Source of the DNA: Patescibacteria group bacterium
Lineage (GTDB): Bacteria > Patescibacteriota > Patescibacteriia > UBA9934
Assembly (NCBI GenBank): GCA_041659765.1
Contig: JBAZXR010000001.1
Span: 531,338-595,337, forward strand
Direction: 5' to 3'
Length of the DNA: 64,000 nucleotides
Of the stretch, positions 10,835 to 28,500 are shown one piece after another. Within the stretch, counting starts at the first letter, position 1; each line of letters starts with the position of its first letter. Made by a program: the position numbers and the translations under genes. The notes beneath the pieces are model-generated. The model saw nothing but the letters and a program-made list of their open reading frames with translations. It ran no database searches and had not been told where the DNA came from.

Positions 10835-10841
10835 AGATGCC

Positions 10842-11189
10842 CTATTCGTTGGGCTTTTTGACGTTCTCAATGGCTACCGCCCGCACAAGCGATGTCATCT
10901 CCGCGGACAGCTTCTGCTGGGCAATCATGAGCCGATACACGGTGAACGTAAGGACCACAATGGCAGAGTAGACAATGACGTCTGCGCCGCGGCCGATGCC
11001 AACAAAGTTAGCAACAATGTTCGCTAAGTTCGGCACGAGCGCGACCGCGATAACGACGATCCACAAAAGCGTGAAGGCGATGGCCCAATATTTGGAAGCT
11101 TCTTTTTTGGAATACTGCTTCCACGTTTTATAAATGGCGTACGCAGCGAATGAAACAAGGATGATTTGGAAAATCATATTAGCCAACAA
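10842..11189 (-). CDS. DUF2304-family small membrane protein (partner of a GT2 glycosyltransferase).
   Basis: About 3 TM helices; GIGRGADVIVY...YRLMIAQQKLSAEMTSLVRAVAIEN matches the DUF2304 pattern. Lies immediately downstream of, and overlaps, the GT2 gene. Confidence 0.65.
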   Translation of the reverse strand: MLANMIFQIILVSFAAYAIYKTWKQYSKKEASKYWAIAFTLLWIVVIAVALVPNLANIVANFVGIGRGADVIVYSAIVVLTFTVYRLMIAQQKLSAEMTSLVRAVAIENVKKPNE

Positions 11190-11856: not shown

Positions 11857-11868
11857 AGATGGGGTTAT

Positions 11869-12888
11869 CTAACCTATATTTCCACCATTCGTCAAAAGAA
11901 CCTTATTAGCACGAACGTAATCTATTGCTTTCTTAAGTCCGTCCTCAGTCCTAACGAGCGGAATCCAACCAAGCTTTTCACGAGCTTTATTCAAGGATGG
12001 GAGACCAAGCGGCACCATGTGGGCTGCCTGAGCCTCATAACTAATCGCCACTTCCTCACTTTCCGTCAGCGTCATGATCTGTTTGGCGATATCTGAAATT
12101 TTCACCTCAACATCGCTGCCAAGATTTACGGGACCAATCCCCTTCTCCGCCCGCATCAGACGCGTCAAACCGTCTACCACATCTGTGACATAGGCCAGTG
12201 TTGTCGTTGAGTTCTCATCGCCCATGATTACAATTGGCTGTCCGTCAAGCACATTTAAAATAAAATCTGGAATCTGGTGGCCCTGGAACAACGGCATGCG
12301 CGGACCGAAGGTCCTAAAGATACGGGCAATCTTGCAATCCAATCCGTAAACATCCGCATAAGTGGTGAACATGGTTTCTGCGAAGCGTTTGCCTTCGTTA
12401 AAGCAGGCACGGGGGTTCAAATGATCTAGCACGCCGAGCTCTGACTCATCAATCCCTGCTTTTATGCTCGCATCACGGGCGCCATAAACTGTAGCCGAGG
12501 AAGTTAAAAGGGCACGCGACTTATATTTAACCGCCAAATCAAGAACATTTTTAGTACCCAATGAATTAGTGAGCAAAGCCGGCATCCGATACTTTTCAAA
12601 ACCTTTTACGGCTGTGGGCAGGGCCAAATGATAAATTTCCTGGACACCGAGAAATTTTACTTTAAATGGTTCGAGCTCCGGAAAGGTCTCAAGGTCGAAC
12701 GGAACGGAAATGTCGAGCTTCAAAAACTGGAAGTCGGGATTGCGCAAAAGCGATTCAATATTGCGAACATGCCCCGTAGAAAAGTCATCGACGCAGATGA
12801 CGTGATTCCCTTCTTTGAGAAGCACGTCGCACAAAAACGATCCAATAAATCCTGCGCCTCCCGTAACCAAGACATTTTTTTTATCCAT
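11869..12888 (-). CDS. NAD-dependent sugar epimerase/dehydratase (UDP-glucuronate decarboxylase / UXS-like).
   Basis: VLVTGGAGFIGSFLCDVLL...; extended SDR fold, 339 aa. Confidence 0.65.
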   Translation of the reverse strand: MDKKNVLVTGGAGFIGSFLCDVLLKEGNHVICVDDFSTGHVRNIESLLRNPDFQFLKLDISVPFDLETFPELEPFKVKFLGVQEIYHLALPTAVKGFEKYRMPALLTNSLGTKNVLDLAVKYKSRALLTSSATVYGARDASIKAGIDESELGVLDHLNPRACFNEGKRFAETMFTTYADVYGLDCKIARIFRTFGPRMPLFQGHQIPDFILNVLDGQPIVIMGDENSTTTLAYVTDVVDGLTRLMRAEKGIGPVNLGSDVEVKISDIAKQIMTLTESEEVAISYEAQAAHMVPLGLPSLNKAREKLGWIPLVRTEDGLKKAIDYVRANKVLLTNGGNIG

Positions 12889-12897
12889 ATTATTTAT

Positions 12898-14979
12898 TTA
12901 CCAAGCTCCAAGTGAAGTGCCCAAAGAGCCGATAAGTTTAGAGCCAAGTGTGCCCATTATATTCCCATGCGAAGTAAAAACCTGTACTTCACCGGCGCCA
13001 TGTTCTGGGGCCACCACAATATCCTCTTTACCGTCTACATCTATGTCTGAAACGGCTACCACCGCGCCGGTTTTAGAAGATTGATCACCCACCCAGAACT
13101 GTCCCCATACCGCACCAATCTTGTTAAAGATGCGGATATTGGAGGCCCCTGGCGCACGCGGGGCGGTCACAATCTCGTCTCGATCGTCGCCGTCAAAGTC
13201 GCCGGACGACAGTGAGATGCCATAAGTCATGGTTGGCGCATATGCCAAGAAATCCACCAAAGCTTTTCCATCATTATCATACACGGCTACACGGGGGATT
13301 CCAGACAAGGCGCCAAACACCATTTCTTGATCATAGTCCTCATCAATGTCAGCCACCGTGGCGGTGAGCGGAGTGTCGGCGGCGAACCCGACCACCGGAA
13401 ACCGGAATTTCTCTACACCATCTTGGCCGAACACCACAGCATCAGTGCTGACTCCGGCCCCAACCACGGCTACAATGTCATCCGAAAAATCCCCGTCCAC
13501 ATCACCCAGGGCCACAGAGACTCCTTGTCTTGTTTTCTCATCAAAAGCAAAGAACGAACGAATGAGTGCGCCAGTAGCGGTGAAAATTCGTATCTGTGGA
13601 CCGCCGCCTTTTCCAGCCGAAGCAATAACCTCAGGAACACCATCGCCCGTCAGATCAGCCAGGCCCACCCGAACACCGCCCAGAAAAGTTGGCGCAAAAA
13701 CATAGAACTCTGCATATGGCGTACCGTCAGCCTTATATACTCTGACGTTCGGCGGCTCGCCAGGCGCTGCGCCGAGGGCAATAAACGAATATGCCGAATC
13801 TCCAGTCAAACCGCCACTACTCGCCGCTGGCGGCTTAGTGGTTGAAGGAATTGGCGCAACTGGGAGTGGTCCGGCCGGGGCGGTGCCCGCCAATGATTGA
13901 GCCACGGATAGCGCGCGAGCGATATTCAATCGGCCGACGCCTAGCGAACCCGGACCAGATAAGGTCACTTTCACCGGGTCAACCGACAGCTTGATGGCAG
14001 TCCTGACTTGATCAACCGTCAGCGTTGGGAAAGCTGAAAGCATCAAGGCGGCGGCTCCGGCCACCATTGGGCTAGCGGCGGACGTGCCATCCCAAGAAAG
14101 CTGGGTACCAAATAATCCAGTGTCTCCGTCACTCAAAGTTAAACCCTGAATATTCGTGCCGGGCGCGCTTAAATCCGCACAGGCGTTTCCAAAATTAGTG
14201 AATTCAGTTTCAGAATCACTCTCGTCAGTAGCGGCCACGCCGATCACCCAATCCTCCGTTTCTGATCTGAAACAGGCCGGGTAGACCGGCGAGCTGTTCA
14301 CATCCCTTCCATCATTCCCGAGCGCGGCCGTAATGGTCACCCCGGCATGATAAGCATCAATCACCGCCTGCCGCAAAGCCGAACCAGACACGTCCCCCAC
14401 AAAACTGAGATTAATTACTTTCGCCCCATTTTTCACCGCGTAACGAATAGCGCTGGTCGCCTCCTCTTCTCCCCCGCCGCCTTGTTCATCTAAAATTCTG
14501 AGCGGCATGATACGAACGTGCCAATTAATTCCCGCGTAACCAATACTATTATTCGTGGCTGCTCCAATAATGCCGGAGATCAGAGTTCCGTGCGATGTAG
14601 CAAGCGCTGAAGAATTCGCGTCCGGAATAGTCCCCTTGGGAACCGGAGAATTGTCATGATCCACAAAATCCCAACCTTCGACATCATCAACATATCCGTT
14701 CCGATCATCATCCAGGCCATTGCCCGGAATCTCATTAGTGTTCTTCCAAAGATTGTGGACTAAATCTGGATGATCAAGATCCACCCCAGTATCAAGAACG
14801 GCCACGATCACCGAGCCATCACCGACCGACGTATCCCAAGCGGCCTCAACATTAATCAGGCGCAAGTACCACTGCTCAGCAAGATATGGATCGTTCGGGG
14901 TTTTTGCCAAGACGCACAAAGGCGGGGTTAATAACCCCGCCATCACAAAACAGATCGCGACGTTCCCAAGAAAGCGCAT
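12898..14979 (-). CDS. Secreted subtilisin-like (S8) serine protease with C-terminal FG-GAP/VCBS-like repeats.
   Basis: Catalytic triad blocks DTGVDLDHPDL, HGTLISGIIGA and GTSAASPMVAGAAAL. C-terminal repeats of the DxDGDGxxD type (LADLTGDGVPEVI etc.). Signal peptide present. Confidence 0.85.
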   Translation of the reverse strand: MRFLGNVAICFVMAGLLTPPLCVLAKTPNDPYLAEQWYLRLINVEAAWDTSVGDGSVIVAVLDTGVDLDHPDLVHNLWKNTNEIPGNGLDDDRNGYVDDVEGWDFVDHDNSPVPKGTIPDANSSALATSHGTLISGIIGAATNNSIGYAGINWHVRIMPLRILDEQGGGGEEEATSAIRYAVKNGAKVINLSFVGDVSGSALRQAVIDAYHAGVTITAALGNDGRDVNSSPVYPACFRSETEDWVIGVAATDESDSETEFTNFGNACADLSAPGTNIQGLTLSDGDTGLFGTQLSWDGTSAASPMVAGAAALMLSAFPTLTVDQVRTAIKLSVDPVKVTLSGPGSLGVGRLNIARALSVAQSLAGTAPAGPLPVAPIPSTTKPPAASSGGLTGDSAYSFIALGAAPGEPPNVRVYKADGTPYAEFYVFAPTFLGGVRVGLADLTGDGVPEVIASAGKGGGPQIRIFTATGALIRSFFAFDEKTRQGVSVALGDVDGDFSDDIVAVVGAGVSTDAVVFGQDGVEKFRFPVVGFAADTPLTATVADIDEDYDQEMVFGALSGIPRVAVYDNDGKALVDFLAYAPTMTYGISLSSGDFDGDDRDEIVTAPRAPGASNIRIFNKIGAVWGQFWVGDQSSKTGAVVAVSDIDVDGKEDIVVAPEHGAGEVQVFTSHGNIMGTLGSKLIGSLGTSLGAW
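14921..14946. repeat. Palindromic micro-element, family P2 (GGCGGGGTTAATAACCCCGCCATCAC), lying in-frame within the signal peptide of the S8 protease.
   Basis: Identical core plus ATCAC flank at 36941..36965. Encodes MAGLLTPP. Confidence 0.85.
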
Positions 14980-15000
14980 ATGCGCACAGTATACCCGAAC

Positions 15001-15753
15001 CTACTTCACAATACATGTCGTTTTCAGGGCCTGGAGTTCATCCGCAATACTTTGGTTCTTGGGCGAAAGAGTTTTGGCTACAGAAAAATGGTCAATAGCG
15101 CGTTGGCAATCTCCAGCGTTCTGATACCACCGACCAAGCTGCACCATGTTCCAGGAAGTCTGCCCGCGCTTGGCCACGTAAACTTCTAAAAGTTTTTTCA
15201 CCGAATCCTGGTCAGCCGGGAAATGCACCTCCAAGAGCTCGACTAAATTAATATAAAAACTTTCTGGTCCCTGGCCAGCACTGAGTTCTATAGCGTGCTC
15301 AAAGGCTTTTCTGGCACCAGAATAATCACCCATCTTGGCCAGTACGTTGCCGTAAGAATTGGTTGCCGCGTAGTTAAGCGGATTGCCTTTTAGTTCGGCT
15401 TCATATGCTTCACGAGAAGTGATCAGGTCGCCAAGAACCAAGGCATAGTTACCCACCGCATCATATCTATTCAAATTCACCTCTCCGCCATCAGCCTGAT
15501 CAGCCGCTAAAGCTGCCTGCGCGGTCCTCAATTGATTCTCAACATACGCCCGCGTAGCTGGATCCATATCAACCTGAACATAAGTGGTCAGTCCGCGATA
15601 TTTAGCCGACGGTCCAACCAAGAGGAAAACTCCATACCCTAAAGACAGGAGAAGAACGAGAGAAACGGCACCAATAATATAGTGTGTGCGAGTCAAAGCC
15701 ATATGGGCGAAAGTATAGAAAAACCTGGTAAAAAGAGCAACCCCGCGTTTCAT
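15001..15753 (-). CDS. TPR-repeat protein with an N-terminal membrane anchor.
   Basis: 250 aa. TM segment IIGAVSLVLLLSLGYGVFLLV followed by TPR-like helical repeats (AxxxxG...Y patterns). Confidence 0.65.
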   Translation of the reverse strand: MKRGVALFTRFFYTFAHMALTRTHYIIGAVSLVLLLSLGYGVFLLVGPSAKYRGLTTYVQVDMDPATRAYVENQLRTAQAALAADQADGGEVNLNRYDAVGNYALVLGDLITSREAYEAELKGNPLNYAATNSYGNVLAKMGDYSGARKAFEHAIELSAGQGPESFYINLVELLEVHFPADQDSVKKLLEVYVAKRGQTSWNMVQLGRWYQNAGDCQRAIDHFSVAKTLSPKNQSIADELQALKTTCIVK

Positions 15754-15803
15754 CCCTGTACCCTCAAGCGAGAGGGAGGATAAAACACGGGGTCACGATG
15801 GTC

Positions 15804-18764
15804 TCACTGTACGGTAGCTGCCCCGATCCACGCTTCGGTGAACCCGACCAGGTCAGTGGCCGTGACGCCACCGGCGCAGAGGACGAACCCTTCGGTCGTA
15901 TTCCCAGCGGTCAGCCAGGTCACCACCTGCCGATCCGTACCGGCAAGCACGGTCGACGTCGAGTAGAGCTCTGTAGCGGCCACATGATCAACCACGTAGT
16001 CAGACAACCGATACACTCGGAGGATCTGTCCGTTGGTCGACGACTGGTTAGCGTAGTCGAACGTCATGGCGTACTTGTTCCCTACGCCCGCGGTAAAGGT
16101 GTACGCACGACACTCGTCCGCAATACCGGCCGCACCACCAGTGTTGTCAAAGTACGCAGCGTTCCGCGTACTCCCGAGCGTGGTGGTGAAAGCGAGCGGT
16201 CCAGTAGGTCCCCAAGTGGAGGGTCGACCGAGCGTGTACGAGTACGTCGTCCAACTTGAGAGCGCCCCGCACCCCATCGTCACGTCACACGAGTTGCCAA
16301 TGAGGTTCGGTCCCGTGAACCGAGCGACGAGCGCGCTGCCGGAAACTGCAAAGGTGGTCACTCCGTCCGTGTGGGCAAAGGTACCGTCACAGTTGTCATC
16401 AGACGCCGTCTTGGACGACTCCGCCACGCCCGGGTGGACGAACGGCGCACGGTCGTCACAGTCACCGGCGGCCGAAGCGTAGCCAACGGGCGCACTGCAC
16501 GCTTGCTTGGTTGGCGCAGATGTTCCGTACCCATCAGCGTCAAGGTCCTGGAAGAATGTCGGCATAACGCCTTCGTCAATCCCGGACCCGCAGTTGTTGT
16601 CTACCCCGTCGCAGACCTCTACGGCCCCGGGGTTCACGAACTTGTCAGTGTCATTGCAGTCCGTCGAGACGCTGGCGAACCCGGCCGGAGCCGAGCAAGC
16701 AGCAATAGTCGACGTCGGAATTCCGTACGCGTCTCCGTCACCATCCTGGTAGTAGGTGTTCTTCACGCCTTCGTCAACTGCAGTATCGCAGTCATCGTCG
16801 GCCCCGTTGCACGCCTCAGCGGCCACGGGATTGATCAGGCTCTTCGTGTCGTCGCAGTCCGTGCTGTTGGCTGCGAAGCCGACGGGCAGGCTGCAGGCGA
16901 GCGTGGTGACGAGCACGTTGCCGTACTGATCACCGTCTGTATCCGCGAAGTAAGTGTTCTTCACGCCTTCGTCAATTCCGCCTTCGCAGTCGTCGTCCAC
17001 CCCGTTACAGACTTCCGTCTTCCCGGGATTTACGCCGCTCTTGGCGTCATCGCAGTCAGTCGCGTTGAGCACATAACCCGCGGGCGGGCTGCACTGACTG
17101 ACGGATTTGGAGCTGTCCCCATAACCGTCATTGTCACTGTCCCGATAGTACGTGGCACTGCCAGTGGCGCCGTTATCCACGGAGCCGTCGCAGTTGTCGT
17201 CCTTACCGTTGCAGACTTCCGTTCCGGCAGGGCTGACGAGCGCAGTTGCGTCATCGCAGTCCGTGGAGGCGGCTACATACCCGGCCGGAGCCGAGCACGC
17301 TTTGGTCGAGGTGACTCCCCCGTACCCATCTTTGTCGCCATCCAAGTACCACGTCTTTGCGTCAGCAGCGTTGTCGTCGATCTTGCCATCGCAGTTATCG
17401 TCGAGACTGTTGCACACCTCCGTGGCGCTCGGGTTCACAGACTTGCTCGCGTCGTTGCAGTCGCTCTCATTGGCCACGTACCCGGCGGGCGGCGTGCAGG
17501 CTTCCGTAGAAGTCCCGCCGCCAAACCCGTCACCGTCCGTGTCCTTGTAGAACGTCAGCAAGACGCCTTGATCGATGACGCCGTCACAGTCGTCATCACG
17601 GTCGTTGCAGACTTCGCTCTCGTCCGGGTTAACGGCCGGACGGGCGTCATCGCAATCACCGTTCACGAGCGTGTACCCGGCCGGAGCCGAGCACGCCTGT
17701 TTGAACACGTCAGAACCGTAGTTGTCCTTGTCCGTGTCCTGGTAGAACGCGATGAGCGTCCCTTCGTCGATCCCATCCGCGCAGTTGTTGTCCACCCCAT
17801 CGCACACCTCTGTGGCGGCAGGGTTGACCTCAAACGCAGAGTCGTCGCACTCGAGACAAGCAAAGAAGCCGTCTCCGTCACCGTCCTCTGCGCCGTAAAA
17901 GCCGTCGCAGTTGAGGTCCTCCGGGTCCGTGCAACTCTCGGCCGCACCCGGATAGACTGCGGCATTCCCGTCATCACAATCCTTACTCTGGGCTGCGTAC
18001 CCTTCCGGCATCTCACAGGCCAGAATCTGACCAGACTTGCTGTTCGTACCAACTCCGTCCTGGTCAGCGTCCTTGTAGAACTTGTCCTGACCGATCACGG
18101 AAGCGTCTTCGTCGTCCACGAGCAAGTCGCAGTCGTTATCAATGAGGTCGCAGACCTCCTGTGCGACCGGATTGACGGTGGGGTTGTTGTCATCGCAGTC
18201 AACAAAGCCATCGAACCCGTCTTCGTCATCGTCTTTGATCTCCACCTCCGTCGTCTTGCCGTCGCAGTTCCGGTCGACACCGTCGCCAGGAAAGTCAGGA
18301 ATACTCGGGTTGATGTCAGGATCCGTGTCATCGCAGTCATCGGCGTTGTACACGAGTCCCTCAACTCCGTAGACCTCACAGCCCCAGAGCTCGGCACTGC
18401 CGTCTCCAAAACCATCACTATCTTTGTCCGCGTAGCGCGGCAAACGCTGATCGCTGCCCGCGTCTCCCTCCTCGCAGTCATTATCAATCCCGTCACACGG
18501 AATTTCCTCGACTGCCGGGAGGTCATTCTCCTCATCGGTATCACCATCCCAAACGTTCGGGTGAACCAACGCGTCATTGTCGTCGCAGTCATCAATTTCC
18601 ACGAAGAATCCATCGCCGTCCGCATCAACTAGCGGAATGTGATCCGGCAGGATCAACGCGCAACCAGAGAACATGAACGAAGCCATAACCAAACAGTTGC
18701 TGTAACGCATTGAAGCACCCCTAAAAGCTGTGGCTTGATAGCCGTTTTCGTAACTCAAGGCCAA
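15804..18764 (-). CDS. Large secreted Cys-rich protein with about 13 tandem MopE-like putative metal-binding repeats (CxDxDxxVNPxAxEVCNGxDDDCDGxxDEG). Lipoprotein-like signal peptide; the likely start is at an internal Met near 18710.
   Basis: Strongly periodic repeats are visible in both DNA and protein. The antisense 753-aa ORF is an artefact of the GC-rich repeats. Confidence 0.8.
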   Translation of the reverse strand: MALSYENGYQATAFRGASMRYSNCLVMASFMFSGCALILPDHIPLVDADGDGFFVEIDDCDDNDALVHPNVWDGDTDEENDLPAVEEIPCDGIDNDCEEGDAGSDQRLPRYADKDSDGFGDGSAELWGCEVYGVEGLVYNADDCDDTDPDINPSIPDFPGDGVDRNCDGKTTEVEIKDDDEDGFDGFVDCDDNNPTVNPVAQEVCDLIDNDCDLLVDDEDASVIGQDKFYKDADQDGVGTNSKSGQILACEMPEGYAAQSKDCDDGNAAVYPGAAESCTDPEDLNCDGFYGAEDGDGDGFFACLECDDSAFEVNPAATEVCDGVDNNCADGIDEGTLIAFYQDTDKDNYGSDVFKQACSAPAGYTLVNGDCDDARPAVNPDESEVCNDRDDDCDGVIDQGVLLTFYKDTDGDGFGGGTSTEACTPPAGYVANESDCNDASKSVNPSATEVCNSLDDNCDGKIDDNAADAKTWYLDGDKDGYGGVTSTKACSAPAGYVAASTDCDDATALVSPAGTEVCNGKDDNCDGSVDNGATGSATYYRDSDNDGYGDSSKSVSQCSPPAGYVLNATDCDDAKSGVNPGKTEVCNGVDDDCEGGIDEGVKNTYFADTDGDQYGNVLVTTLACSLPVGFAANSTDCDDTKSLINPVAAEACNGADDDCDTAVDEGVKNTYYQDGDGDAYGIPTSTIAACSAPAGFASVSTDCNDTDKFVNPGAVEVCDGVDNNCGSGIDEGVMPTFFQDLDADGYGTSAPTKQACSAPVGYASAAGDCDDRAPFVHPGVAESSKTASDDNCDGTFAHTDGVTTFAVSGSALVARFTGPNLIGNSCDVTMGCGALSSWTTYSYTLGRPSTWGPTGPLAFTTTLGSTRNAAYFDNTGGAAGIADECRAYTFTAGVGNKYAMTFDYANQSSTNGQILRVYRLSDYVVDHVAATELYSTSTVLAGTDRQVVTWLTAGNTTEGFVLCAGGVTATDLVGFTEAWIGAATVQ

Positions 18765-18816
18765 ATAAAAATAGCAAAAAAATGCTGTTTTGTCAAGTAT
18801 TTTACCTAATGTTAGC

Positions 18817-18862
18817 GAAGAAAAACCAAAATCCCCCTCAGCTTTCGCTTTGGGGGATTTTG
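18817..18862 (-). terminator. Rho-independent terminator for the giant surface-protein gene.
   Basis: Hairpin AAATCCCCCTCAGCTTTCGCTTTGGGGGATTT followed on the minus strand by TTTGGTTTTTCTT. Confidence 0.6.
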
Positions 18863-18900
18863 CTGTCTTAAACCTTTTGGCTTAGGACGTCACACTAGTC

Positions 18901-21900
18901 TTAGAAGACCAATGTTCCGCCGGAGACCGTGAGGCTGTCGACCAAGTACGAACCCCAGTAATCACCGGTGTTCGTAGCCGAAGCTGCGGAGTTAGTTCCA
19001 TCATCCTGCCAGAGCAAGGTGCCCGGGAGGCGCTGGATGTCGTCCGTAAGATCGTATGCCGTACCAGTGAGCGTAGCATCAGATGTGTAGATTCTGGAAC
19101 CAAGGTATCCACGAACAACGTAGAGGTTGTGAGTTGCGATACCGGTCACCAACATCTTTTCATCTGTAGAAGCCACCGTCGTAGCATCAGCCGTGCTGTA
19201 GTTGATCACATCGCCTACCTTGAAGGCAGTGCCGTCATCAACTGCGAGCGTGTTAGCCGTTTCCAAGAGATCCGTCACGTTCGAAGCGTCAGCAACGTTC
19301 AAGTACGTTGAAACGATTGGATCGGTCGGAAGATCGAAACGGATAGAGTCGTCGTTGGCTGAGCTTGCACCAGTTGAGTCAAAGTACACAGCGAAGTTAT
19401 TCGAGGTGCCCTTAGCTACAACCTCAGCAACTGGGAGCGCGATGCCCACAAAGCTGAGATCCTGGGTGAAGTTCGTAGTGTCACAAGCTGCACCTGTTGA
19501 CTGGTAAAGTGTCCAGTCAGCATCTGCAGTGTCCAACGTCTGAGACGTGCCATCCATCGTCAAGTTGTATAGATCGAAGTCGGCAGTCGTCGTTGCGACA
19601 GCTGGGTTATCCGTGTCACATTCGTTCCAGTCAACACTGGTAGCGTCTGTGTTGGAAGTGTCGTTATCCGTCAAAGTCACCTTGAAGAGCAGCTTGTTCA
19701 ATACTACGTCTTCGTTAGAAGAAGCAGCAACTGAGAAGCGGAGCACTTCAGAGCGGCCTGGAACAGCGCTACCGGAAGGTGAAGAGGAGCTGAGTGTAAC
19801 CACCGGCTTAGTTTCCTTAACCACGAAGGTAGGAACACTGTCGGTTGCGAACACATCATCACCAAGATCAGCAATTCCTGAAGCTGCCTCGTCAAGCGTG
19901 AAGCCAGAACCGGCTCCAGTTGCCTTGAACGATTCGCTGCCGGAGTTGTCTCCATCAGAGAAGGCCATACGGATCTTTTCGTTGCTGGTAGCGGAACCAC
20001 CAGAATCACGATCCGTAGGAGGCAAGTTCACGTAGACCTTAACATCCTTAGGTGTACCAACCGGTACGTACATCAATAGACCAGAGAACGTCGCAGCGTT
20101 TCCAGACATAGAGGCCGTAGCCGTACCCGTGGTGCCGTCGGCCTTAGGGTAAGAGAGGGTCACGAGAGAGATGTTGTTAGCGTAGACACTGGAATCAGCT
20201 GTAGAAGCCGTTCCAAGCATATCGTCTTCAGCCTGTTCTTCCGTGAAAGACAGCGTCTGAACGTTGAAGGATTCAAGTGTCGCTGCGAAGCGATACTGAG
20301 CTACTTCTACGTTGTTGGTACCTGTCAGCGCGAAGTCTGCGCTTGGGGTGCTTGAACCAACAGTCACTGAAAGCGTACCGGAATCAGATACCGTGACAGT
20401 GCGAGTAGGTGCAGTTCCACCGTTCACCGCGTTGCCCGTAGCTGTAACCGAGTTGCTTGAAGAATCTTCAGCTGTAATGTTGGTACCAGCCAAAGCGATG
20501 TCGAATGCGAAGAACGCATCGCCAGTCGTTGAGGTGTTAGCAAAGTTACACTGAACAGTCATGTTCTTAACGGCACCGGCTGCAATAGTCCAGCTCATGG
20601 TGCTGAAACGAATAGTCTGACCGTTAGTTGCTGGAGCTTCTGGACCGGCTACGCGCGTAACACCGTCATAGAGCGAGCAGGAGTCAACGTAATCGTTAAC
20701 GTCTGCGCTCTCAGAGGTTGTGCTAACGCCACCACCGATATCGTAAGTACCGCTCACAGACGTGTCCTGACCGTAAGCAGAAAGCGTCAGGTCAGTGATC
20801 GTTACTGGAGAAGCCAAACCAGTAGTCATAGTGAAGCCGACCACAGATACGTTCTGTGTACCGTCAACAGTGGTGACGCTGGTTGGCGTGCTGGCCAAGG
20901 AAACTACCAAGGAAGCCTGTCTGGCAACCTGGGTGTAACCAGTGATGTCTGAACCAGGGATGATATCCGCGGTAGCAAGAGCATCGCCGTTCGTGTCTTC
21001 CGTAACAAGACCACTCATGTCAAAGATGGCAGCAAGGGATTCACCAGAGGTGAGGCCGTTGTCTACGTCAGCCGTGACCGCCAAGTTCAATGTCTCACCG
21101 GCGTTCAAGGAGAAGTCATCTGTGAAGTCAATGATCTGAAGAGCGTCTTCTGCAGTACCAGTCAAGCTGGTTTCTGAAGAAGCGTCATCCGTAGTCGTGT
21201 CAAGCTCCAAAGGACCCATGATTACAGCGCCGGTGTCAGCGTTGATGATCTTGATGTCCTTCAAGTTAGCTTCAGAACCGGAGTTAATCAAACCGTCATC
21301 ATCAGCGTCACCAGTTTCCTGACCTTCTGTAACGGTGCCATCGTCGTCATCATCAGCAGCTACCTGGATGTCCAGGTCCTTAATGGTGATGAACTGAGTA
21401 GCCGTGACCGAGAATTTCAAGAGGGTCTGGTCCTGAGAATCTACCTGGACGTCGCCAGCAGCTGGGCCATTGAAAGCAAACGTAAGTTTGCCGCCCTTAA
21501 CCGTGCTGAAGGAACAGTTACCAGATGAAGATGTGCAGGAAGCACCGTCATAAGTACCAACGGTTCCGGTATCAACCGTGAGGCCGAATCCGAAGTCACC
21601 GCCGATAGCTACGATGTCAACATTGTTGTCGATGAACACCTTAACGGTGTCAGCTGACTGTCCACCAATATCCGCGGATACTGAGAAGATGTTGTTGCCA
21701 CCTTCATTGATGTGGAAAGGATGTGCGGAGAGATCAAAGACCACCCAGTCACCGGAGGAGTTAACACCAGTGGTAAGAAGAACACTGCCATCCCACAGAC
21801 GGAAGTCTGAGTGATCAGAAGCGTTGTCTACCTTAACGGTGATAGCGGAGATGTCAGCTGCTTCGGAGCCGTTAGCGGCTGCCTTGAAGGAACCGATTTC

Positions 21901-23154
21901 TGCATCCTGAGCGCCAACCGTTGGGTCAGCGATCGTGCCGGACTTTGTGATCAAGAGAGTTCCAGCATCAGCACCAGTGAAGGTGAAGATGTTACCCGTG
22001 ATTGGGAAGGAACCGCTCACTGATCCTGCAGACACTACGTCAGCAGAGTTGGCAACCTTGAAGCCGAACGTATCAGCTGCTACCTGGGAGGTGGAAGTGG
22101 TCACGCGCACCGTGTAGGTGTGCATGCTGTTGGCAGCGATGGAGCGGTTCAAGTTGTTGAAAGATACCTGGCGAGTGGAGGAGTTCACAGTGCGTGATTC
22201 CGTCAAACGCGTGCTACCTTCGTACAAGTAAACGCTAGAAATGTTGTTGGTGGAACCAGCTCCAATCATGGAGAGGGTTACGCCGCTAAACGTTGCTGCT
22301 GCGCTACCTGCCTGTACGTTGAAAGAAAAGACCTGCACGGAGTTCGATCCACCTGGGAGCGAAGCGCCGGCTGGCATGGAAGAAGCTGCGGAGACCGTCA
22401 GGCCGCCCGTAGAAACTACCGTACCAGTTACCGTCTGTGCGTCATCGGACACCGAAGCTTCCTTCGTGGTCAAATCTGCACCAGCGGACAAGGCACTATC
22501 TACAACACCGGCGCCATCCATGACGTACATGGACTGGAGACCGTTAGCTGACATACCAGCTGAGGATACCAAGCGCTTTGCACCATCCCAGTTAAGGTAG
22601 GTGTTTCCAGCACTCGAGTACATCATGCCGTTGTAAGCTGTTGCACTCATAAGAGATGCACCAACCGTGTAGTCCGTGAAGAAGACATCTGGCACGTCCA
22701 TGATGCGCTGGTTCCAGTCGGATCCAGCGTAAGCGACGGCCACTGCTTCTGTTTCAATCCAGTAAATCTTACCGTTGCGGCCTACTGCGTAGGTCTTCGG
22801 GTCAGAGGTCACCTTGATCCATGAAGAACCTGGGCGGAACACGATGTTGCCACCAAGAGTAATGTCAGAGATCGTGCTGTCAGAGACAGTCATGACGCCG
22901 CTGAAATCAGCTACGCCAGAGCTGTTGGAGTGCCAGCTTGAGTATGTTTTGAGGTTAGGGTACGTGTAGCGCATACCGTCATAACCGTAGTAGTAAACCG
23001 TAGAGAGCGAAGCGCTCCGGATACGGTCACCAGCGGCTGCAGCGTGCGTCACGGCTGGGCTCATAAGAGCACCGGCGCCAATCGAGAAAGCGATCGTCGC
23101 TGCAGCTACTGCGGCAGAGAGAGCGCGCTTTCCTGTTTCTAGAACATGTTGCAT
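18901..23154 (-). CDS. Giant (~1417 aa) secreted surface protein, rich in T/S/G/D and probably beta-rich. Putative adhesin or S-layer-like. The true start is likely MQHVLETGKRA at 23154.
   Basis: Long ORF with signal peptide AFSIGAGALMSPAVTHA and low-complexity, Ig-like repetitive composition. The ORF-track N-terminal extension (to 23355) runs through intergenic palindromes. Confidence 0.75.
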   Translation of the reverse strand: MQHVLETGKRALSAAVAAATIAFSIGAGALMSPAVTHAAAAGDRIRSASLSTVYYYGYDGMRYTYPNLKTYSSWHSNSSGVADFSGVMTVSDSTISDITLGGNIVFRPGSSWIKVTSDPKTYAVGRNGKIYWIETEAVAVAYAGSDWNQRIMDVPDVFFTDYTVGASLMSATAYNGMMYSSAGNTYLNWDGAKRLVSSAGMSANGLQSMYVMDGAGVVDSALSAGADLTTKEASVSDDAQTVTGTVVSTGGLTVSAASSMPAGASLPGGSNSVQVFSFNVQAGSAAATFSGVTLSMIGAGSTNNISSVYLYEGSTRLTESRTVNSSTRQVSFNNLNRSIAANSMHTYTVRVTTSTSQVAADTFGFKVANSADVVSAGSVSGSFPITGNIFTFTGADAGTLLITKSGTIADPTVGAQDAEIGSFKAAANGSEAADISAITVKVDNASDHSDFRLWDGSVLLTTGVNSSGDWVVFDLSAHPFHINEGGNNIFSVSADIGGQSADTVKVFIDNNVDIVAIGGDFGFGLTVDTGTVGTYDGASCTSSSGNCSFSTVKGGKLTFAFNGPAAGDVQVDSQDQTLLKFSVTATQFITIKDLDIQVAADDDDDGTVTEGQETGDADDDGLINSGSEANLKDIKIINADTGAVIMGPLELDTTTDDASSETSLTGTAEDALQIIDFTDDFSLNAGETLNLAVTADVDNGLTSGESLAAIFDMSGLVTEDTNGDALATADIIPGSDITGYTQVARQASLVVSLASTPTSVTTVDGTQNVSVVGFTMTTGLASPVTITDLTLSAYGQDTSVSGTYDIGGGVSTTSESADVNDYVDSCSLYDGVTRVAGPEAPATNGQTIRFSTMSWTIAAGAVKNMTVQCNFANTSTTGDAFFAFDIALAGTNITAEDSSSNSVTATGNAVNGGTAPTRTVTVSDSGTLSVTVGSSTPSADFALTGTNNVEVAQYRFAATLESFNVQTLSFTEEQAEDDMLGTASTADSSVYANNISLVTLSYPKADGTTGTATASMSGNAATFSGLLMYVPVGTPKDVKVYVNLPPTDRDSGGSATSNEKIRMAFSDGDNSGSESFKATGAGSGFTLDEAASGIADLGDDVFATDSVPTFVVKETKPVVTLSSSSPSGSAVPGRSEVLRFSVAASSNEDVVLNKLLFKVTLTDNDTSNTDATSVDWNECDTDNPAVATTTADFDLYNLTMDGTSQTLDTADADWTLYQSTGAACDTTNFTQDLSFVGIALPVAEVVAKGTSNNFAVYFDSTGASSANDDSIRFDLPTDPIVSTYLNVADASNVTDLLETANTLAVDDGTAFKVGDVINYSTADATTVASTDEKMLVTGIATHNLYVVRGYLGSRIYTSDATLTGTAYDLTDDIQRLPGTLLWQDDGTNSAASATNTGDYWGSYLVDSLTVSGGTLVF

Positions 23155-23330
23155 AAAGTTACAGAAACCATTTTCCCCTTTTAAGGGGTAAAGAGATAGA
23201 GGTTTGCACGGGCCTGCGGCCCCGACCTTTGAAGCGTGCTTACCCGGGATGCGTTGAACGCAGTCCCTTTCGGGAGGGCATCGTGCGATGCCCTGCCTGA
23301 AGGAAATGCCTTGCTCTATTCTGAGACGGG
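23155..23330 (-). other. Structured leader / intergenic region containing five consecutive GC-rich stem-loops.
   Basis: Palindromes CCCCTTTTAAGGGG (23177..23190), GGGCCTGCGGCCC, GCGTTCAACGC, GGGCATCGTGCGATGCCC (23276..23293) and the P1 element (23330..23349). Confidence 0.5.
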
Positions 23331-24476
23331 GACGGGGCAAGCCCCGTCCGTACAACTCGCTTCGCTCGTTGCCGCTTCGGCTTTGGCGGCTTCTTCCGCG
23401 GCCTTAGCGTCGGCTTCGGCCTTAGCTTCGGCGTCAGCCCTGGTCTGCATAATGAGGATTTCTGTTTCCGCAATGTTCGCCTCAAGTTTGAGCAGTTCTG
23501 CGTCTATCCCCTGGAGCGTAGCGAAGGCGCTTCTGTAACCACCGGCGGCGAAACCGTTCATAGCCTCCGGAATCTGTAGCTTGGTTTGCTTAATCACGTA
23601 GCTCAGTCTCTTTAGGTCATCGCCGGAAGGAATCCCCTTCACTCCGTCAAACATCTTCACTCCGAGCACCGTCTTGCTAATAGTGTCTAACCGATGCTCA
23701 TCGAAGGTTTGTCTGGCCTCTATAGATCCGAGCTCCTTAGTGAACATGGCCTTCAGTTCAACGGTTGATTTCTCTGTAGCTCCTTGCTCATGGACATCTA
23801 CCGCAACGGTAGTTGCGACAGTCTGCGCCTCCTTCACGGCCTGCTTTGCGTCAACGGTTTCCGTGCCGGCTGCTGAAGTTGAGTTGGTCGATGCCGTTTC
23901 TTCGATCACTGCCTTCATCGAGTCGATCTTATTCTGCACGTCAGTCACGACGGCGAGTGCCGTGGACGAACCAACACTGTCTTTCAAGTTTTTCAAATCG
24001 GCTGAGGCCTGAGAAAGTTCCGAGGCGTATTCCACCATGGCTGTCTTAGCGAGTGCCTGATGGCCCTCGTCCGTAGATCCTGATGAGCGAAGTTCTGCCG
24101 CTTCTCGCAATCTGCGCTCGGCGAACTCGGTATGGAGCACAGCGCGACGATCGAGCGACGCCAACCGAAGCTGAGCCTGTTCCGTAATACGTTTTACTGA
24201 GTAGAGGGTTTCGCCCGGCAAGCTCGACGAAGCCGCGCTCACCGTAGAAAGACTACCGGCAAAAAGAGTAACTGAAGCCACACCGATAGTTACCGGCTTA
24301 GAAATAAAAGAACTGACATACCAAGAGACGTAAGACTTGGAAGTCTGGCGAACTGGCAAGTCAGCGCTCACACGTGAAAGGAGGCGGGACTTAGCCGCGC
24401 CGTGCTCAGAAAGAGAAAGGGCCCCTGCTCGGGGATTATTTTTCAAACTCTTAAGTTGTGATAGAAGGTTCGACAC
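23316..24476 (-). CDS. DUF5667-like membrane protein, a candidate anti-sigma factor. It has a cytoplasmic N-terminus, one TM helix and a long helical extracytoplasmic domain.
   Basis: Motif PGETLYSVKRITEQAQLRL follows the TM helix. 26-nt overlap with the upstream ECF sigma gene. Confidence 0.6.
   Translation of the reverse strand: MSNLLSQLKSLKNNPRAGALSLSEHGAAKSRLLSRVSADLPVRQTSKSYVSWYVSSFISKPVTIGVASVTLFAGSLSTVSAASSSLPGETLYSVKRITEQAQLRLASLDRRAVLHTEFAERRLREAAELRSSGSTDEGHQALAKTAMVEYASELSQASADLKNLKDSVGSSTALAVVTDVQNKIDSMKAVIEETASTNSTSAAGTETVDAKQAVKEAQTVATTVAVDVHEQGATEKSTVELKAMFTKELGSIEARQTFDEHRLDTISKTVLGVKMFDGVKGIPSGDDLKRLSYVIKQTKLQIPEAMNGFAAGGYRSAFATLQGIDAELLKLEANIAETEILIMQTRADAEAKAEADAKAAEEAAKAEAATSEASCTDGACPVPVSE
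23330..23354. repeat. Palindromic micro-element, family P1 (GGACGGGGCAAGCCCCGTCCGTACA), forming the last codons (TDGACPV) of the anti-sigma-like gene.
   Basis: Same core and GTCCGTACA flank as 6446..6470. Confidence 0.8.
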
Positions 24477-25002
24477 AAAGTTCTTGGAGTGCTTTTTTGG
24501 CCCGGTGAAGGGTTACTCTGACATTATTCGGTGTCTGTTCAAGCGTACTCGCGATCTCGCTAATACTTAGCTCGTTCAAATACCTGAGCACTAGCACCTC
24601 ACGGTATTCATCCTTGAGAAGTTTCATCTTCTCTATAAGGTCATCGCTCTCCCCTTTCTGCGTGACTTCTTCAACCAAGGAACCGCTCGCAGGAACCTGT
24701 TCTAGCACCGAGTCCTCGACCACCTCCACCGGCGTATTCTTCCTATAGAAGTCCGCGGTGATGTTTCGGGCGATCCGGAAGAGCAAAGCTCCTACGTTAT
24801 CTACCGCACTCGACGTCATGTATTCCCAACCGCGGAGAAACACCTCGCTCGTGATCTCCTCGGCGTCCTCTTTGCGAGGGACCTTAAAGACCAGGAACCG
24901 ACGAATGCGGTCAGCATGGATGTCATACAACTCTCCGTACGCGTCCGTGTCCTTGAACCGGTACACGCGGAAGGCGAGGAATTTTTGACGGTAAGCTGAC
25001 AT
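24451..25002 (-). CDS. RNA polymerase sigma-70 factor, ECF subfamily.
   Basis: Region 2 (ITSEVFLRGWEY...LFRIARNITADFYRK) and region 4 (LKDEYREVLVLRYLNELSISEIASTLEQTPNNVRVTLHRAKKAL). Likely start MSAYRQKF. Confidence 0.85.
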   Translation of the reverse strand: MSAYRQKFLAFRVYRFKDTDAYGELYDIHADRIRRFLVFKVPRKEDAEEITSEVFLRGWEYMTSSAVDNVGALLFRIARNITADFYRKNTPVEVVEDSVLEQVPASGSLVEEVTQKGESDDLIEKMKLLKDEYREVLVLRYLNELSISEIASTLEQTPNNVRVTLHRAKKALQELCVEPSITT

Positions 25003-25089
25003 GTATGAAGTCGTTGTTAATCGGAAAACATTACAGTCTAGAGAAAATGTTGGCAAGATTAGCCACATGCCTCCTCTTGACCAGCTTTC

Positions 25090-25148
25090 TGAGTTTGTCT
25101 ACACTAGTATGGACAAGTAAAAAAGTTTGTCCACGCTAGTGTAGCATT
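25090..25148. promoter_or_regulatory. Two direct copies of an imperfect palindrome (TTGTCYACRCTAGTRTRGACAA-like, centred on ACTAGT), lying in the divergent sigma/HTH promoter region. Candidate operator.
   Basis: GTTTGTCTACACTAGTATGGACAAG ... GTTTGTCCACGCTAGTGTAGCA, immediately upstream of, and overlapping, the ATG of the HTH gene. Confidence 0.4.
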
Positions 25149-25424
25149 ATGCAAACGCCCATTCGCCTCTCCGTTTCTGAAGCTTCGAAGCTATTCGGTG
25201 TCAGCCCGCGGACTGTTCGCCGTGCAGTCTCCGATGGAGCTGTAACCTATATAGTCGTTCAAGGGCGGTATAAAATTACATTCGAGTCCTTGCTCAAGTG
25301 GAGCCAAGAAACCACGACCGTCAAAAACAAGCTGAACAAGTCCGGTCTTGGCCAGTACGTTGGCCAGTGGAAGATCAAAAACAAACTCTACTCCCCCAAC
25401 CCAAAATCGCTTGAAAATGAGTAA
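25149..25424 (+). CDS. Small HTH DNA-binding protein (excisionase/MerR-like HTH_17). Its last 12 codons are identical to the end of the orphan RHS fragment.
   Basis: LSVSEASKLFGVSPRTVRRAVSDGAVTYI, a helix-turn-helix. The C-terminus is YSPNPKSLENE. Confidence 0.6.
   Translation: MQTPIRLSVSEASKLFGVSPRTVRRAVSDGAVTYIVVQGRYKITFESLLKWSQETTTVKNKLNKSGLGQYVGQWKIKNKLYSPNPKSLENE
25388..25424 (+). repeat. Left copy of a 37-bp perfect direct repeat (CTACTCCCCCAACCCAAAATCGCTTGAAAATGAGTAA).
   Basis: Identical sequence at 32185..32221. Both copies encode the ORF end ...YSPNPKSLENE* and are followed by a terminator hairpin. Confidence 0.9.
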
Positions 25425-25537: not shown

Positions 25538-28500
25538 ATGAGAAAGCTGCTTCGTTCGGGATTCATAGCAACACTCTGTGTGCTCGCAACTACCCTGCCG
25601 GTGCGTGCGATAGAACAAGACAGTTCGCCGTTTATCGCATCCACACCAGTTCGTGTTGCTCCAGAAGACTCTTCGGGGTCTTTTTCATATTCCTATCCCA
25701 TCTCCGTTCCACCCGGACGCAATGCCATGCAGCCAAACATTTCGCTATCTTATAACAGCGGCGTCGCGGATGACGCTAGTATTACGGGCTACGGCTGGAG
25801 CCCCTCAATCCCAAAGATTGAGCGGGTCAACAAACGCGGGGTCGACAAGCTTTACAACAGACACGACTTCACTTCTTCGCTTGGCGGAGAGCTGGTCGAC
25901 GTATTGTTGTCCGATGGTTCGCACGGAACCTATGCGGTCAAAGTCGAAAATGGAAATTTCCTTACCTACGTTTACAACACGAACGAAACCTGGACGGTGA
26001 CGGACATGCTTGGCACGCAATACACCTTCGGCGGGAGCAGCAACTCGCGGGTCATTGACCCTGCCAACAGTTCTCACGTCTTCTCTTGGTACCTCACAGA
26101 AACTCGTGACACGAATGACAACGTCGTCACCTACTCATATTCCAGTACCAATAACCAGGTTTATCCGAGCAACATTAACTATACTGGACACGCCAACACT
26201 GCCGGTATTTTTGACATCGCCTTTACTCTGGAAGCAAGCTCGACCACAAACGAATCATTCGCCACGGGATTCTCTGTAAAAACCGGCCAGCGAATTTCCG
26301 CGATTACCGTAAAAGTGAATAATACAAATGTTCGTATCTACGACATTAACTATACGGTCGGAGACAACACCACCCGACCGCTTCTTTCAAGTATCACAGA
26401 GACCGGGATAGACGAGGCTAGCAACAGCATCACTAAACCCGCTACCACGTTTACATATTCCGCAAGCCACCGGACCTGGACGGAAGATACGACTGCCTCT
26501 ATTCCTATTGCCATAGCGGCAGGAGGCGCGTCTAGCATCGGCACGTTTGTCTTTGATGTAAATGGAGATTCGCTGCCAGACATCGTAAAATCATTAATAA
26601 TTGACAACGGCGGCACGCCCATCATTGAACGTGGAGTATATCTGAACGATGGAAATAACAACTGGGTAGAAGATGCAGGCTACACCATTCCAGTCTATTT
26701 CGCTGGTAATGGCTATGACCAAGGCGTGCGCATCGCCGATTTTAACGGTGACGGCTATCAGGACATTTTGAAAGCGCGGAGAGATCAGAACACCGGTGTT
26801 TTATACAGCGAAGTCTATATCAACGATGGCGATGGAACTGGGTGGACCCAAGATACTACAGTTGTCATTCCTACAGCCTTTGATAACTCAACAAGGATTT
26901 TTGATGTGAACGGAGATGGTCTTCCTGATATTGTCTATGGACGAATGAATCAATGGACAGCTGCGATCGAGAGCGAGTTCTACATCAACAATGGCGACGG
27001 AACTGGCTGGACCCTGGATGGAAATTATGTACTGCCGATAAACATTTCCACTGAAAAGGGAAAAGATGCGGCGTTCCGAACGGCCGACGTCAACGGCGAT
27101 GGGTTAACAGACCTCCTGCAAGCCGTATCAACAACCAACGAGGTCTATATCAATAAGGGGAACGGAACTGGGTGGATCAAAAACACCAGCTACGTCATTC
27201 CCGCAACCTTCCTCGCGACAGGAAAAGATACCGGCACGCGGCTTCTTGATATTAACGGAGATGGTCTCACGGACGTCTTCCACTCTCGTCTTGACTCAAC
27301 AGGAAACCCTGAAAGCAACCTCTACATCAACCGGGGAGGAGAGGAGGGATGGGTTGAAGATACAAACTTTCAAGGAGCGCCGGTCGCCATGACTACCAGC
27401 GCTGGCGCTGACCGTGGCGTCCGAGAAGATAATTTCTCTGGATCGATGTTGACGGACTTCATGCACTCCGTTAGAACCGGAACGCCCGAGGTTCTCTATA
27501 CCTACCTGTTCGTCCAAGACGGAGGCAGGGGCGATCTTCTAACTAGCGTCTCATCAACAAGCGGAGCGACGACAGATGTAGCCTACACCTCTTCCACCGT
27601 TCCCAACCCCTCACTTCCTTTCTCTCTTCAAGTTGTCGATACCATCACGACGGATGACGGATTCGGGAATGTTTCAACGCAATCTTATACATACGAAAAT
27701 GGTTCATTTTACTACAACAATGAATACGACAGAAAGTTCGCTGGGTTCGGAAAAGTAACGACAACGGACGGGCTTGGAAATGTGACGATTAGCTATTACC
27801 ATCAGGGAAATACTTCGGACTCCGCTCATGGCGAAGCAACGGATGACGTCAGCAAGCTCCTACATCGCTATCGCGAAGAACAATACGACAGTAATGGAAA
27901 CCTCTATCGCACGACAATTGACACGTGGGTTAATACTGACATCGGAAATGGCAGAGACTTTGTCTACAAAACGCAGACACTGGTCATGGACTACGATGGT
28001 GATGCCGATCACCGGGATACTGCCGTTCGGTATACATACAATACGAACAACGGAAACCTCGTTGAGAAAATCGAGTATGGTCTTGGCACTGGAAACGATA
28101 ACGGATCCTTTACGGATTCTGGCACGGATGATCGGACGACTGCCTACGCCTACGCGCAGTGGACGAGCGGTGAATCCGGCTACCTGGCCTCCGAAACGCT
28201 CACGGATCATGTCATTGACACCATTCGCCGAACTACCAGGTTCTATGACGGGAACACGACTAACGCCGTAAGCATTGGCAACGTTACGCGAGAGGTGAAA
28301 AAGATTTCGGCTACTGAAAATGCGGAAACAAACTTCGCCTATGACGCGTATGGTTTCCGTACGGCAGTGATTGATGCAAATGGCAATACTACAACCATTA
28401 CTCCCGACGCAGTGGAACTCTATCCGGCGAGCGTCACAAACGATCTCAGTCAAGTCACTGAGTACGTCTATGATTACTCGTCAGGCAAGGTTATAGAGAC

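Follow-up and report, generated by a model that had tools for sequence, protein, structure and literature searches.

We analysed a 64,000-nucleotide stretch of the genome of a Patescibacteria group bacterium, a tiny uncultured member of the Uhrbacteria (candidate phyla radiation) of groundwater type (positions 531,338 to 595,337 of contig JBAZXR010000001.1, assembly GCA_041659765.1; hereafter the window), in which a gene for an extracytoplasmic function (ECF) sigma factor is followed on the minus strand by genes for a membrane protein with a DUF5667 domain, a giant secreted surface protein, a protein with MopE motifs, a membrane-anchored TPR protein and an S8 protease. We conclude with moderate confidence that these genes lie in a core cell-envelope locus of Candidatus Uhrbacteria, one that comprises at least three transcription units and not a single one. 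Our favoured reading of the first unit, which we hold to be somewhat probable, is that an envelope signal releases the sigma factor from the DUF5667 protein, that the sigma factor then activates its own gene through a leaderless transcript, and that transcription reads on into the giant gene under the modulating influence of a structured leader RNA. Bacteria of the candidate phyla radiation are mostly uncultured, and little is known of their envelope or of how it is regulated. The locus offers DUF5667 a testable function, as the anti-sigma partner of an ECF sigma factor, and defines the promoter of that sigma factor from about 50 species. It also puts forward, as the chief surface component of Uhrbacteria, a conserved protein of 1400 residues whose N-terminal module is widespread but unannotated, and it holds a new RNA motif, supported by covariation, that is not in Rfam. 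Finally, it puts right the idea of a single regulon spanning the block.

That idea came from a first-pass annotation of the window, in which the sigma gene was taken to head a co-directional 12-kb block driven by ECF control through to the S8 protease gene. An open reading frame (ORF) listing places all six ORFs on the minus strand at the coordinates given below, and Pfam and NCBIfam profile searches confirmed the claimed gene order and every domain call. The proposed ECF control stands for the sigma/DUF5667 pair and, most likely, for the giant gene; it does not stand for the MopE, TPR and S8 genes. The gaps, described as short throughout, are not short on either side of the giant gene: 161 nt separate it from the DUF5667 gene and about 136-190 nt from the MopE gene, and both intervals carry signals. 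Nor does the block end at 12898, as the same strand runs on through five glycan genes to 8532.

Gene order was compared through context look-ups for four homologues and a scan of one genome per species (80 loci), analysed by tblastn. The order of a divergent helix-turn-helix (HTH) gene followed by the sigma, DUF5667 and giant genes was retained in virtually all loci with a contig long enough to show it (about 75, from different species). The TPR, S8, epimerase, family 2 glycosyltransferase (GT2), DUF2304 and glycosyltransferase (GT) genes come after the giant gene in most loci. The pairing of ECF sigma and DUF5667 genes was kept in about 75 Uhrbacteria loci and recurs in two distant lineages. 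Although the locus is specific to Uhrbacteria, many of the species-representative records that contain it bear the title 'uncultured Gammaproteobacteria bacterium', and single records are titled 'Kapaibacterium' and 'Peribacteria'; these are evidently placeholder or wrong names.

The sigma factor (24451..25002, minus strand; 183 aa) matches Pfam Sigma70_r2 and r4_2, having regions 2 and 4 and no region 3, and it scores 74.1 bits against the ECF superfamily model TIGR02937 (cut-off 42.9), which bears out its identification in the first-pass annotation. No named equivalog was found for it, since all NCBIfam equivalog and subfamily models remained far under their cut-offs; the BldN family scored highest (94 bits against a cut-off of 206), and SigM, for example, reached 87 against 148. 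Its nearest solved relatives are B. subtilis SigW (E 3.7e-18) and then Streptomyces sigma-BldN (E 2.6e-13). Directly upstream of the gene lies an ECF-type promoter (25007..25037, minus strand), with a -35 element TGTAAT at 25035..25030, a 16-nt spacer and a -10 element CGAC at 25013..25010, which lies 7 nt before the ATG at 25002. Alignment of the HTH-sigma intergenic regions of 70 distinct loci yielded the promoter consensus cTGTAAT-N16-CGACT. A loose form of this pattern was matched in 52 of the 70 loci, with a spacer of 16 nt in 42 of those 52, and in 35 loci the -10 element ends exactly 7 nt before the ATG or GTG of the sigma gene. This promoter-to-start spacing fixes the start at 25002, as previously annotated. 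The AAC-like -35, the CGT/CGA-like -10, the position directly upstream of the sigma gene and the conservation across species conform to the ECF pattern, and the promoter probably serves to self-activate the sigma gene. Moreover, the constant distance of 7 nt suggests that transcription starts at the start codon and that the sigma mRNA is probably leaderless.

We searched for further copies of this promoter with a position weight matrix (PWM) built from 29 sites, allowing spacers of 15-17 nt, over the window and about 75-85 loci of about 24 kb each. The matrix scored 33.8 at the sigma promoter and, with the 16-nt spacer, nothing in the rest of the 64-kb window rose above the level of shuffled sequence. 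Nowhere in this DNA did a match precede the giant gene, the MopE, TPR and S8 genes or the glycan genes, and the ECF promoter that the block was expected to share is thus absent. The sole further match in the window (25251..25282, minus strand; 17-nt spacer, PWM score 21.5) is a candidate second ECF-type promoter that lies antisense within the HTH ORF and points toward the sigma gene. This second copy is kept at the same coding position in 9 relatives, and in other clades it is intergenic and adjoins the HTH start. Its role is uncertain, the match sitting in conserved coding sequence; antisense interference between sigma-dependent transcription and HTH expression is a possibility.

Of the 70 loci, 38 also have a sigma70-like promoter 40-60 nt upstream of the sigma start. 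Divergently from the sigma gene, as in nearly all loci, the window encodes a small HTH_17 DNA-binding protein (25149..25424, plus strand; 91 aa, Pfam HTH_17 at 34.3 bits), which is the most conserved protein of the locus, with identities of 53-97% that exceed those of the sigma factor. The promoter of its gene, TTGACC-17-TACACT (25077..25105, plus strand), is overlapped at the -10 element by a 22-bp palindrome with the consensus TTGkCTAC-N6-GTAGmCAA. This palindrome is conserved in about 60 loci and is present in the window as two copies 32 nt apart (arms 25099-25116 and 25127-25144). We infer that it is the operator of the HTH_17 protein, which is probably an autorepressor and may also act as a gate on the sigma operon.

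The gene for the DUF5667 membrane protein (23316..24476, minus strand; 386 aa) begins with a GTG at 24476 and overlaps the sigma stop by 26 nt. The DUF5667 assignment made in the first-pass annotation was upheld by profile search (34.3 bits over residues 85-183, against a gathering score of 27), and homologues bear the precomputed annotation PF18915. A database call of 351 aa, which starts 35 residues late, is truncated, because the N-terminus read from GTG 24476 (QLKxLKxxPxAG...) is conserved among the aligned homologues. The protein consists of a cytoplasmic N-terminus of about 45-55 residues, a single hydrophobic span at about residues 57-82 and a helical outside part of about 300 residues, which carries the invariant motifs LPGxxLYxxK, RRAVLHTEF and AAGGYR. 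Only a few nt separate the gene from the ECF sigma gene directly upstream in about 70 loci, and the same holds for 2 distant lineages. The distant DUF5667 genes start 2-7 nt after their ECF sigma genes and have other genes downstream, in one case PspA and other envelope genes. Coupling downstream of an ECF sigma gene, a short cytoplasmic N-terminus and one span are the gene position and topology expected of an anti-sigma factor, and because of this conserved context and topology we infer that the DUF5667 protein is a candidate member of that class. Our literature searches returned nothing relevant on DUF5667 or on ECF sigma factors in bacteria of the candidate phyla radiation or Parcubacteria.

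Between the DUF5667 and giant genes lies a structured leader of 161 nt (23155..23315, minus strand), within which there is no promoter or terminator. The corresponding interval is always long, at about 150-270 nt across loci, and nearly every locus contains AAAGGTCGA, then a hairpin, with a variable outer helix around both. In the window this conserved RNA motif spans 23189..23251 (minus strand). It folds into an outer helix of about 11 bp (P1), an 11-nt bulge on the 5' side with the sequence UNAAAGGUCGR, and an inner helix of 4-5 bp (P2) that is closed by a four-base loop and stacked directly on P1. The bulge contains AAAGG, the core of the Shine-Dalgarno-like AAAGGA further downstream. The structure was derived by hand, and its covariation was computed on an ungapped alignment that was not fitted to it: 65% of cells were paired, versus 34-48% when the partner was slid by 1-3 columns, and the covariation score was 0.41, versus 0.26 or less. 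All 15 pairs showed double changes, and none of 500 shuffles reached the observed values. In the covariance-model alignment, P2 was 90% paired and showed 20 GC-to-AU double changes. Because many of the pairs are G-U, the structure is that of an RNA and belongs to the sense strand only. RNAalifold, run on an ungapped MAFFT alignment, returned only 3 pairs, as that alignment was not structural, and was replaced by the pair counts and the covariance model.

The covariance model (R1) was built from 46 sequences and searched against both strands of 78 sources (1.44 Mb). It gave exactly one match in 72 of the 78 sources, loci outside the training set included, and the matches always lay 60-230 nt upstream of the start codon of the giant gene and nowhere else. 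An exact 22-nt pattern was found at 19 loci in metagenome contigs, 13 of them in the same DUF5667-to-giant context; the remaining 6 hold the core only, without P1 or gene context, amount to about the number expected by chance on a rough estimate, and were set aside as noise. In another lineage, a giant homologue of 31% identity also follows sigma and DUF5667 genes, and the locus has a weak R1 match of 20 bits. The leader has no Rfam match at the gathering score, and only chance-level matches appeared at E<=10 in 23050..23400. In the searchable literature we found no description of the bulge UNAAAGGUCGR or of its setting between an anti-sigma and a surface-protein gene, nor of RNA motifs in Uhrbacteria.

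Terminator-like hairpins were detected before the leader motif in 3 of 68 loci and after it in 1 of 68, compared with 29 of 41 distinct loci in which a comparable terminator follows the giant gene. No sigma70-like promoter is conserved in the 325 nt ahead of the leader, such matches occurring in 5 of 68 loci and at scattered positions. The element AAAGGTCGA was considered as a promoter -10 and rejected, given that there is no conserved -35 and that the flanking P1 covaries with G-U pairs. P1 has to be part of a transcript, and there is no promoter ahead of it; the simplest account is therefore that transcription of the sigma operon continues into the giant gene.

The giant gene (18901..23154, minus strand) encodes a secreted surface protein of 1417 aa that belongs to no family and that we characterized by AlphaFold2 and composition. 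It is acidic (pI 4.05) and rich in T, S, A and G (T 12.5%, S 11.9% and A 11.4%, with T+S at 24%), contains 0.4% Cys, and begins with a hydrophobic helix at residues 9-30 that is a signal or an anchor. More than 120 full-length homologues with 42-78% identity were found, all in Patescibacteria/Uhrbacteria, and one genome carries two diverged paralogues (L036 and L079). Pfam, NCBIfam and PDB sequence searches returned no match to the protein. AlphaFold2 models of its two halves reached predicted local distance difference test scores of 84 and 88, with a predicted template modelling score of 0.80 for the C-terminal half, and suggest an N-terminal helix, an alpha/beta module at about residues 40-245 and then about 9-10 immunoglobulin (Ig)-like beta-sandwich domains. 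Foldseek searches of both halves against the PDB retrieved only generic Ig-domain chains (such as integrin legs, AgI/II, PrgB and mastigoneme) at template modelling scores of 0.25 or less, and these matches do not discriminate a surface-layer (S-layer) protein from an adhesin. The N-terminal module (residues 39-261; 22372..23040, minus strand) has no Pfam family and matches 3754 cluster representatives, mostly at the N-terminus of proteins of 1200-1550 aa. It also occurs in smaller proteins, where a sample of ten showed it together with Big_1, Big_5, PG_binding_1 or DUF3048, and it is a widespread unannotated surface module. Secreted, large, acidic, rich in hydroxy amino acids and poor in Cys, the giant protein has the composition of an S-layer protein, and S-layers have been predicted for Patescibacteria (bioRxiv 10.1101/2024.05.28.596244). 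Given these properties, the adjoining glycan genes and a nearby 11-helix protein resembling GT-C enzymes, we consider it most likely to serve either as the main surface-coat (S-layer-like) protein or in attachment.

The first unit closes with an intrinsic terminator (18816..18862, minus strand), whose sequence runs CAAAATCCCCC...GGGGGATTTTGG and then into a T-run; the hairpin is 37 nt long, follows the stop codon of the giant gene and has a predicted free energy of -24.1 kcal/mol. Directly after it comes the promoter of the MopE gene, TTGACA-17-TGnTATTTT (18768..18796, minus strand), which agrees with the sigma70 consensus at 10 of 12 positions, has the extended -10 TG, and is the best sigma70-type match of an 18-kb scan. 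The TPR gene also has a promoter of its own, TTGCTC-17-TATACT (15712..15740, minus strand), read from the sequence as sigma70-like, and 7 other loci have a sigma70-like promoter at the corresponding position, immediately ahead of the TPR start. The proposed single operon of the sigma through S8 genes is therefore not supported; because of these separate terminators and promoters and the lack of a shared ECF motif, the claim of a single regulon fails downstream of the giant gene.

In the reading that we favour, the first unit would consist of the sigma gene, the DUF5667 gene, the structured leader RNA, the giant gene and the terminator. The single-pass DUF5667 membrane protein would hold the ECF sigma factor inactive, its cytoplasmic N-terminus presumably binding the sigma factor and its helical outside domain sensing the state of the envelope or surface layer. 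Once freed, the sigma factor would transcribe its own operon from TGTAAT-N16-CGAC, with an mRNA that starts at the ATG, and the nearby sigma70-like promoter and HTH-controlled operator would supply basal and additional control. Because no promoter or terminator lies between the DUF5667 and giant genes, the giant gene would be read through from the sigma promoters, so that the output of surface protein would rise with sigma activity. The leader RNA would make the level of giant protein independent of that of its regulators, perhaps as a processing or stabilising 5' end or as a binding site for a protein or ligand. The second unit, in the genome of the window, would be the MopE-motif lipoprotein gene with its own sigma70 promoter, and the third would comprise the TPR, S8 protease and glycan genes, which would not be driven by an ECF promoter.

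Several points weigh against this reading. The leaderless start of the sigma gene and the co-transcription of the operon are predictions from sequence, and 18 of the 70 loci, mostly from the most distant clades, do not have the simple ECF-promoter pattern, the motif there being seemingly degenerate. A promoter of unknown type may lie inside the 3' end of the DUF5667 gene. No known anti-sigma domain (zf-HC2/ZAS, RskA) was found in the DUF5667 protein in Pfam at E<=10, and no relative of the DUF5667 profile was found among PDB sequences, so that a likeness to RsiW or RsbN did not emerge. The giant protein was found to have neither a known S-layer anchor (such as SLH or CWB2) nor a relative among solved S-layer proteins, and a surface coat, possibly glycosylated, and an attachment protein fit its properties equally well.

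The rival explanation that survives best, and that we still regard as doubtful, makes the giant gene an independent, strongly expressed unit with its own promoter, either of an unrecognised type or situated within the DUF5667 gene at its 3' end. Regulation by the leader would in that case be self-contained, whether as a riboswitch or by stabilising the 5' end in the manner of S-layer mRNAs, and the sigma/DUF5667 pair would control genes elsewhere in the genome. The intergenic gap, always 150-270 nt long, suits such an arrangement, as do the sequence conservation of the bulge, which is typical of a binding site, and the different genes that follow the sigma/DUF5667 pair in another lineage. However, this explanation is hard to square with the 325 nt ahead of the motif, where neither a sigma70-like nor an ECF-like promoter is conserved, with the lack of a terminator after the DUF5667 gene, with the covarying P1 helix, which must be transcribed from upstream, and with an adjacency of sigma, DUF5667 and giant genes that is essentially invariant across species. 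A more far-reaching reading joins the parts of the locus into a self-contained feedback circuit that keeps the surface layer in homeostasis in the ultra-small, host-dependent Uhrbacteria. In it, the leader would be a new class of RNA that binds a trans-factor or ligand and sets the level of the main coat (S-layer) protein, and DUF5667 would be a new structural class of anti-sigma factor, with an outside domain that monitors whether the coat is intact; we think this unlikely.

Less probable again is a DUF5667 protein that is not an anti-sigma factor and instead serves the surface protein, with which it would be expressed, as a membrane-anchored coiled-coil scaffold or anchor, with the sigma factor regulated otherwise. 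The protein has no recognisable anti-sigma domain, its long helical outside region carries conserved motifs, and in Uhrbacteria its gene always adjoins the giant gene. Yet DUF5667 genes lie 2-7 nt after ECF sigma genes also in lineages that have no giant gene downstream, a short conserved cytoplasmic N-terminus with one span is the standard anti-sigma layout, and anti-sigma classes without sequence similarity exist, RsbN being an example (PMC6101532). A single ECF-driven operon or regulon over all six genes, sigma through S8, that would co-drive adhesin, metal-binding and protease functions is very improbable: the genes are all co-directional, the TPR, S8 and glycan genes are conserved beside the giant gene in most loci and terminators can leak, but no locus has an ECF promoter before MopE, TPR or S8, downstream of the giant gene come a strong terminator and a sigma70 promoter, TPR has a promoter of its own, and MopE is missing at this position in most relatives.

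The favoured reading has parallels in known systems. Like the B. subtilis pairs SigW-RsiW and SigX-RsiX and like SigM, the Uhrbacteria locus combines a two-domain sigma factor with a coupled downstream one-span membrane protein (here a candidate anti-sigma factor) and a self-activated promoter with an AAC-type -35 and a CGxC -10 (here predicted). SigX-type promoters have the form TGTAAC-N17-CGAC, close to the TGTAAT-N16-CGAC of the sigma gene in the window. Unlike the B. subtilis pairs, the candidate anti-sigma factor has no zinc-binding or known anti-sigma domain and carries DUF5667 outside the membrane, the mRNA is apparently leaderless, and a 4.2-kb surface-protein gene lies in the operon behind a structured RNA. 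Gram-positive S-layer genes have an adjacent slg glycosylation cluster and long structured 5' untranslated regions. The giant gene resembles them in encoding a large, acidic, Ser/Thr-rich, Cys-poor secreted protein, in its folded leader and strong terminator, and in its adjoining glycosyltransferase, epimerase and GT-C-like genes; it differs in that the protein has no known anchor or solved S-layer match and in that a promoter of its own was not detected. Like the cis-regulatory leaders in Rfam, the motif sits in a 5' leader, is tied to one gene family and is built of a small covarying stem, a bulge and a hairpin; unlike them, it has no Rfam family even at E<=10. In Streptomyces, sigma-BldN directs surface-coat genes (chaplins, rodlins), and its anti-sigma factor RsbN has no similarity to others (PMC6101532). 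The present locus likewise ties an ECF sigma factor and an unconventional membrane partner (here a candidate anti-sigma factor) to a putative cell-surface coat protein. It differs in that the DUF5667 profile matches no PDB chain, by implication RsbN included, that the target lies in the same operon and not at dispersed promoters, and that the organism is non-differentiating and ultra-small.

The MopE gene (15804..18710, or with a start at 18764; minus strand) encodes a protein of about 968 aa with Cys-rich repeats, a C-terminal beta domain and a probable lipobox FSGC. Pfam PF11617 (Cu-binding_MopE) detects 11 stretches in it (309 bits, E 2.6e-94), fewer than the roughly 13 repeats first counted, and metal binding is predicted; tandem repeats at the DNA level were not found in the gene. 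Only the closest relatives (L006/7, L023 and L052) also have the gene between giant and TPR, MopE-like genes being sited differently elsewhere, and its GC content at third codon positions (0.72) is the highest of the block, versus 0.47-0.67 in its neighbours. Because of this distribution and composition, the gene is in our estimation a clade-specific, recent insertion outside the conserved unit. Arrays of such length had been thought unusual, but a search at E<=1e-10 yielded more than 7183 homologues, many of them 1000-1700 aa long, and they occur in Myxococcota, Bacteroidota, Thermodesulfobacteriota and Patescibacteria.

The TPR protein (15001..15702, minus strand) has one transmembrane segment and TPR domains confirmed by Pfam (TPR_2, TPR_12). 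Its true start is likely the ATG at 15702 rather than the 15753 first annotated, as the promoter described above lies 9 nt before it, which makes the transcript near-leaderless. The secreted S8 subtilase (12898..14979, minus strand) has a C-terminal FG-GAP propeller, a fusion noted in the first-pass annotation and confirmed by Pfam (Peptidase_S8 and FG-GAP). It is mycosin-like at 157 bits, under the NCBIfam cut-off, and its gene is conserved in synteny, with some relatives having no FG-GAP repeats. In one relative, an IS200-like Y1 transposase gene lies between the TPR and S8 genes (L001 15326..16009). The glycan genes that follow (8532..12888, minus strand) encode, according to Pfam, an NAD-epimerase, a GT2, a DUF2304 protein and two GT4 enzymes; they are separated by 0-12 nt, and their order is conserved in most loci. 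Plausibly, the TPR/S8/glycan unit serves the maturation or glycosylation of the giant protein. No Shine-Dalgarno sequence precedes the sigma and TPR genes, whose -10 elements lie 7 nt (ECF) and 9 nt (sigma70-like) before the start codon, and the S8 gene likewise has a TATACT 8 nt upstream of its ATG at 14979. This arrangement suggests that leaderless mRNAs arise in Uhrbacteria from ECF and housekeeping promoters alike.

At the end of the conserved cluster lie an 11-helix membrane protein with no Pfam family, read as a GT-C-type glycosyltransferase (6020..7990, plus strand), a CDP-alcohol phosphatidyltransferase (5413..6000, minus strand) and a LA_3751-like putative glycosyltransferase (3712..5400, minus strand). 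Together with the GT2 and DUF2304 genes, these resemble a pathway of lipid-linked sugars that would glycosylate the envelope or proteins. A tRNA scan and an Rfam scan at the gathering score found nothing over the window. On the other side of the locus, the window encodes an RHS/SpvB/TcdB-type, polymorphic-toxin-like protein of 1890 aa with FG-GAP repeats (25538..31210, plus strand); a protein of this type lies on the same side only in the close relatives L031 and L052, and it lies downstream of the giant gene in L021 and L066.

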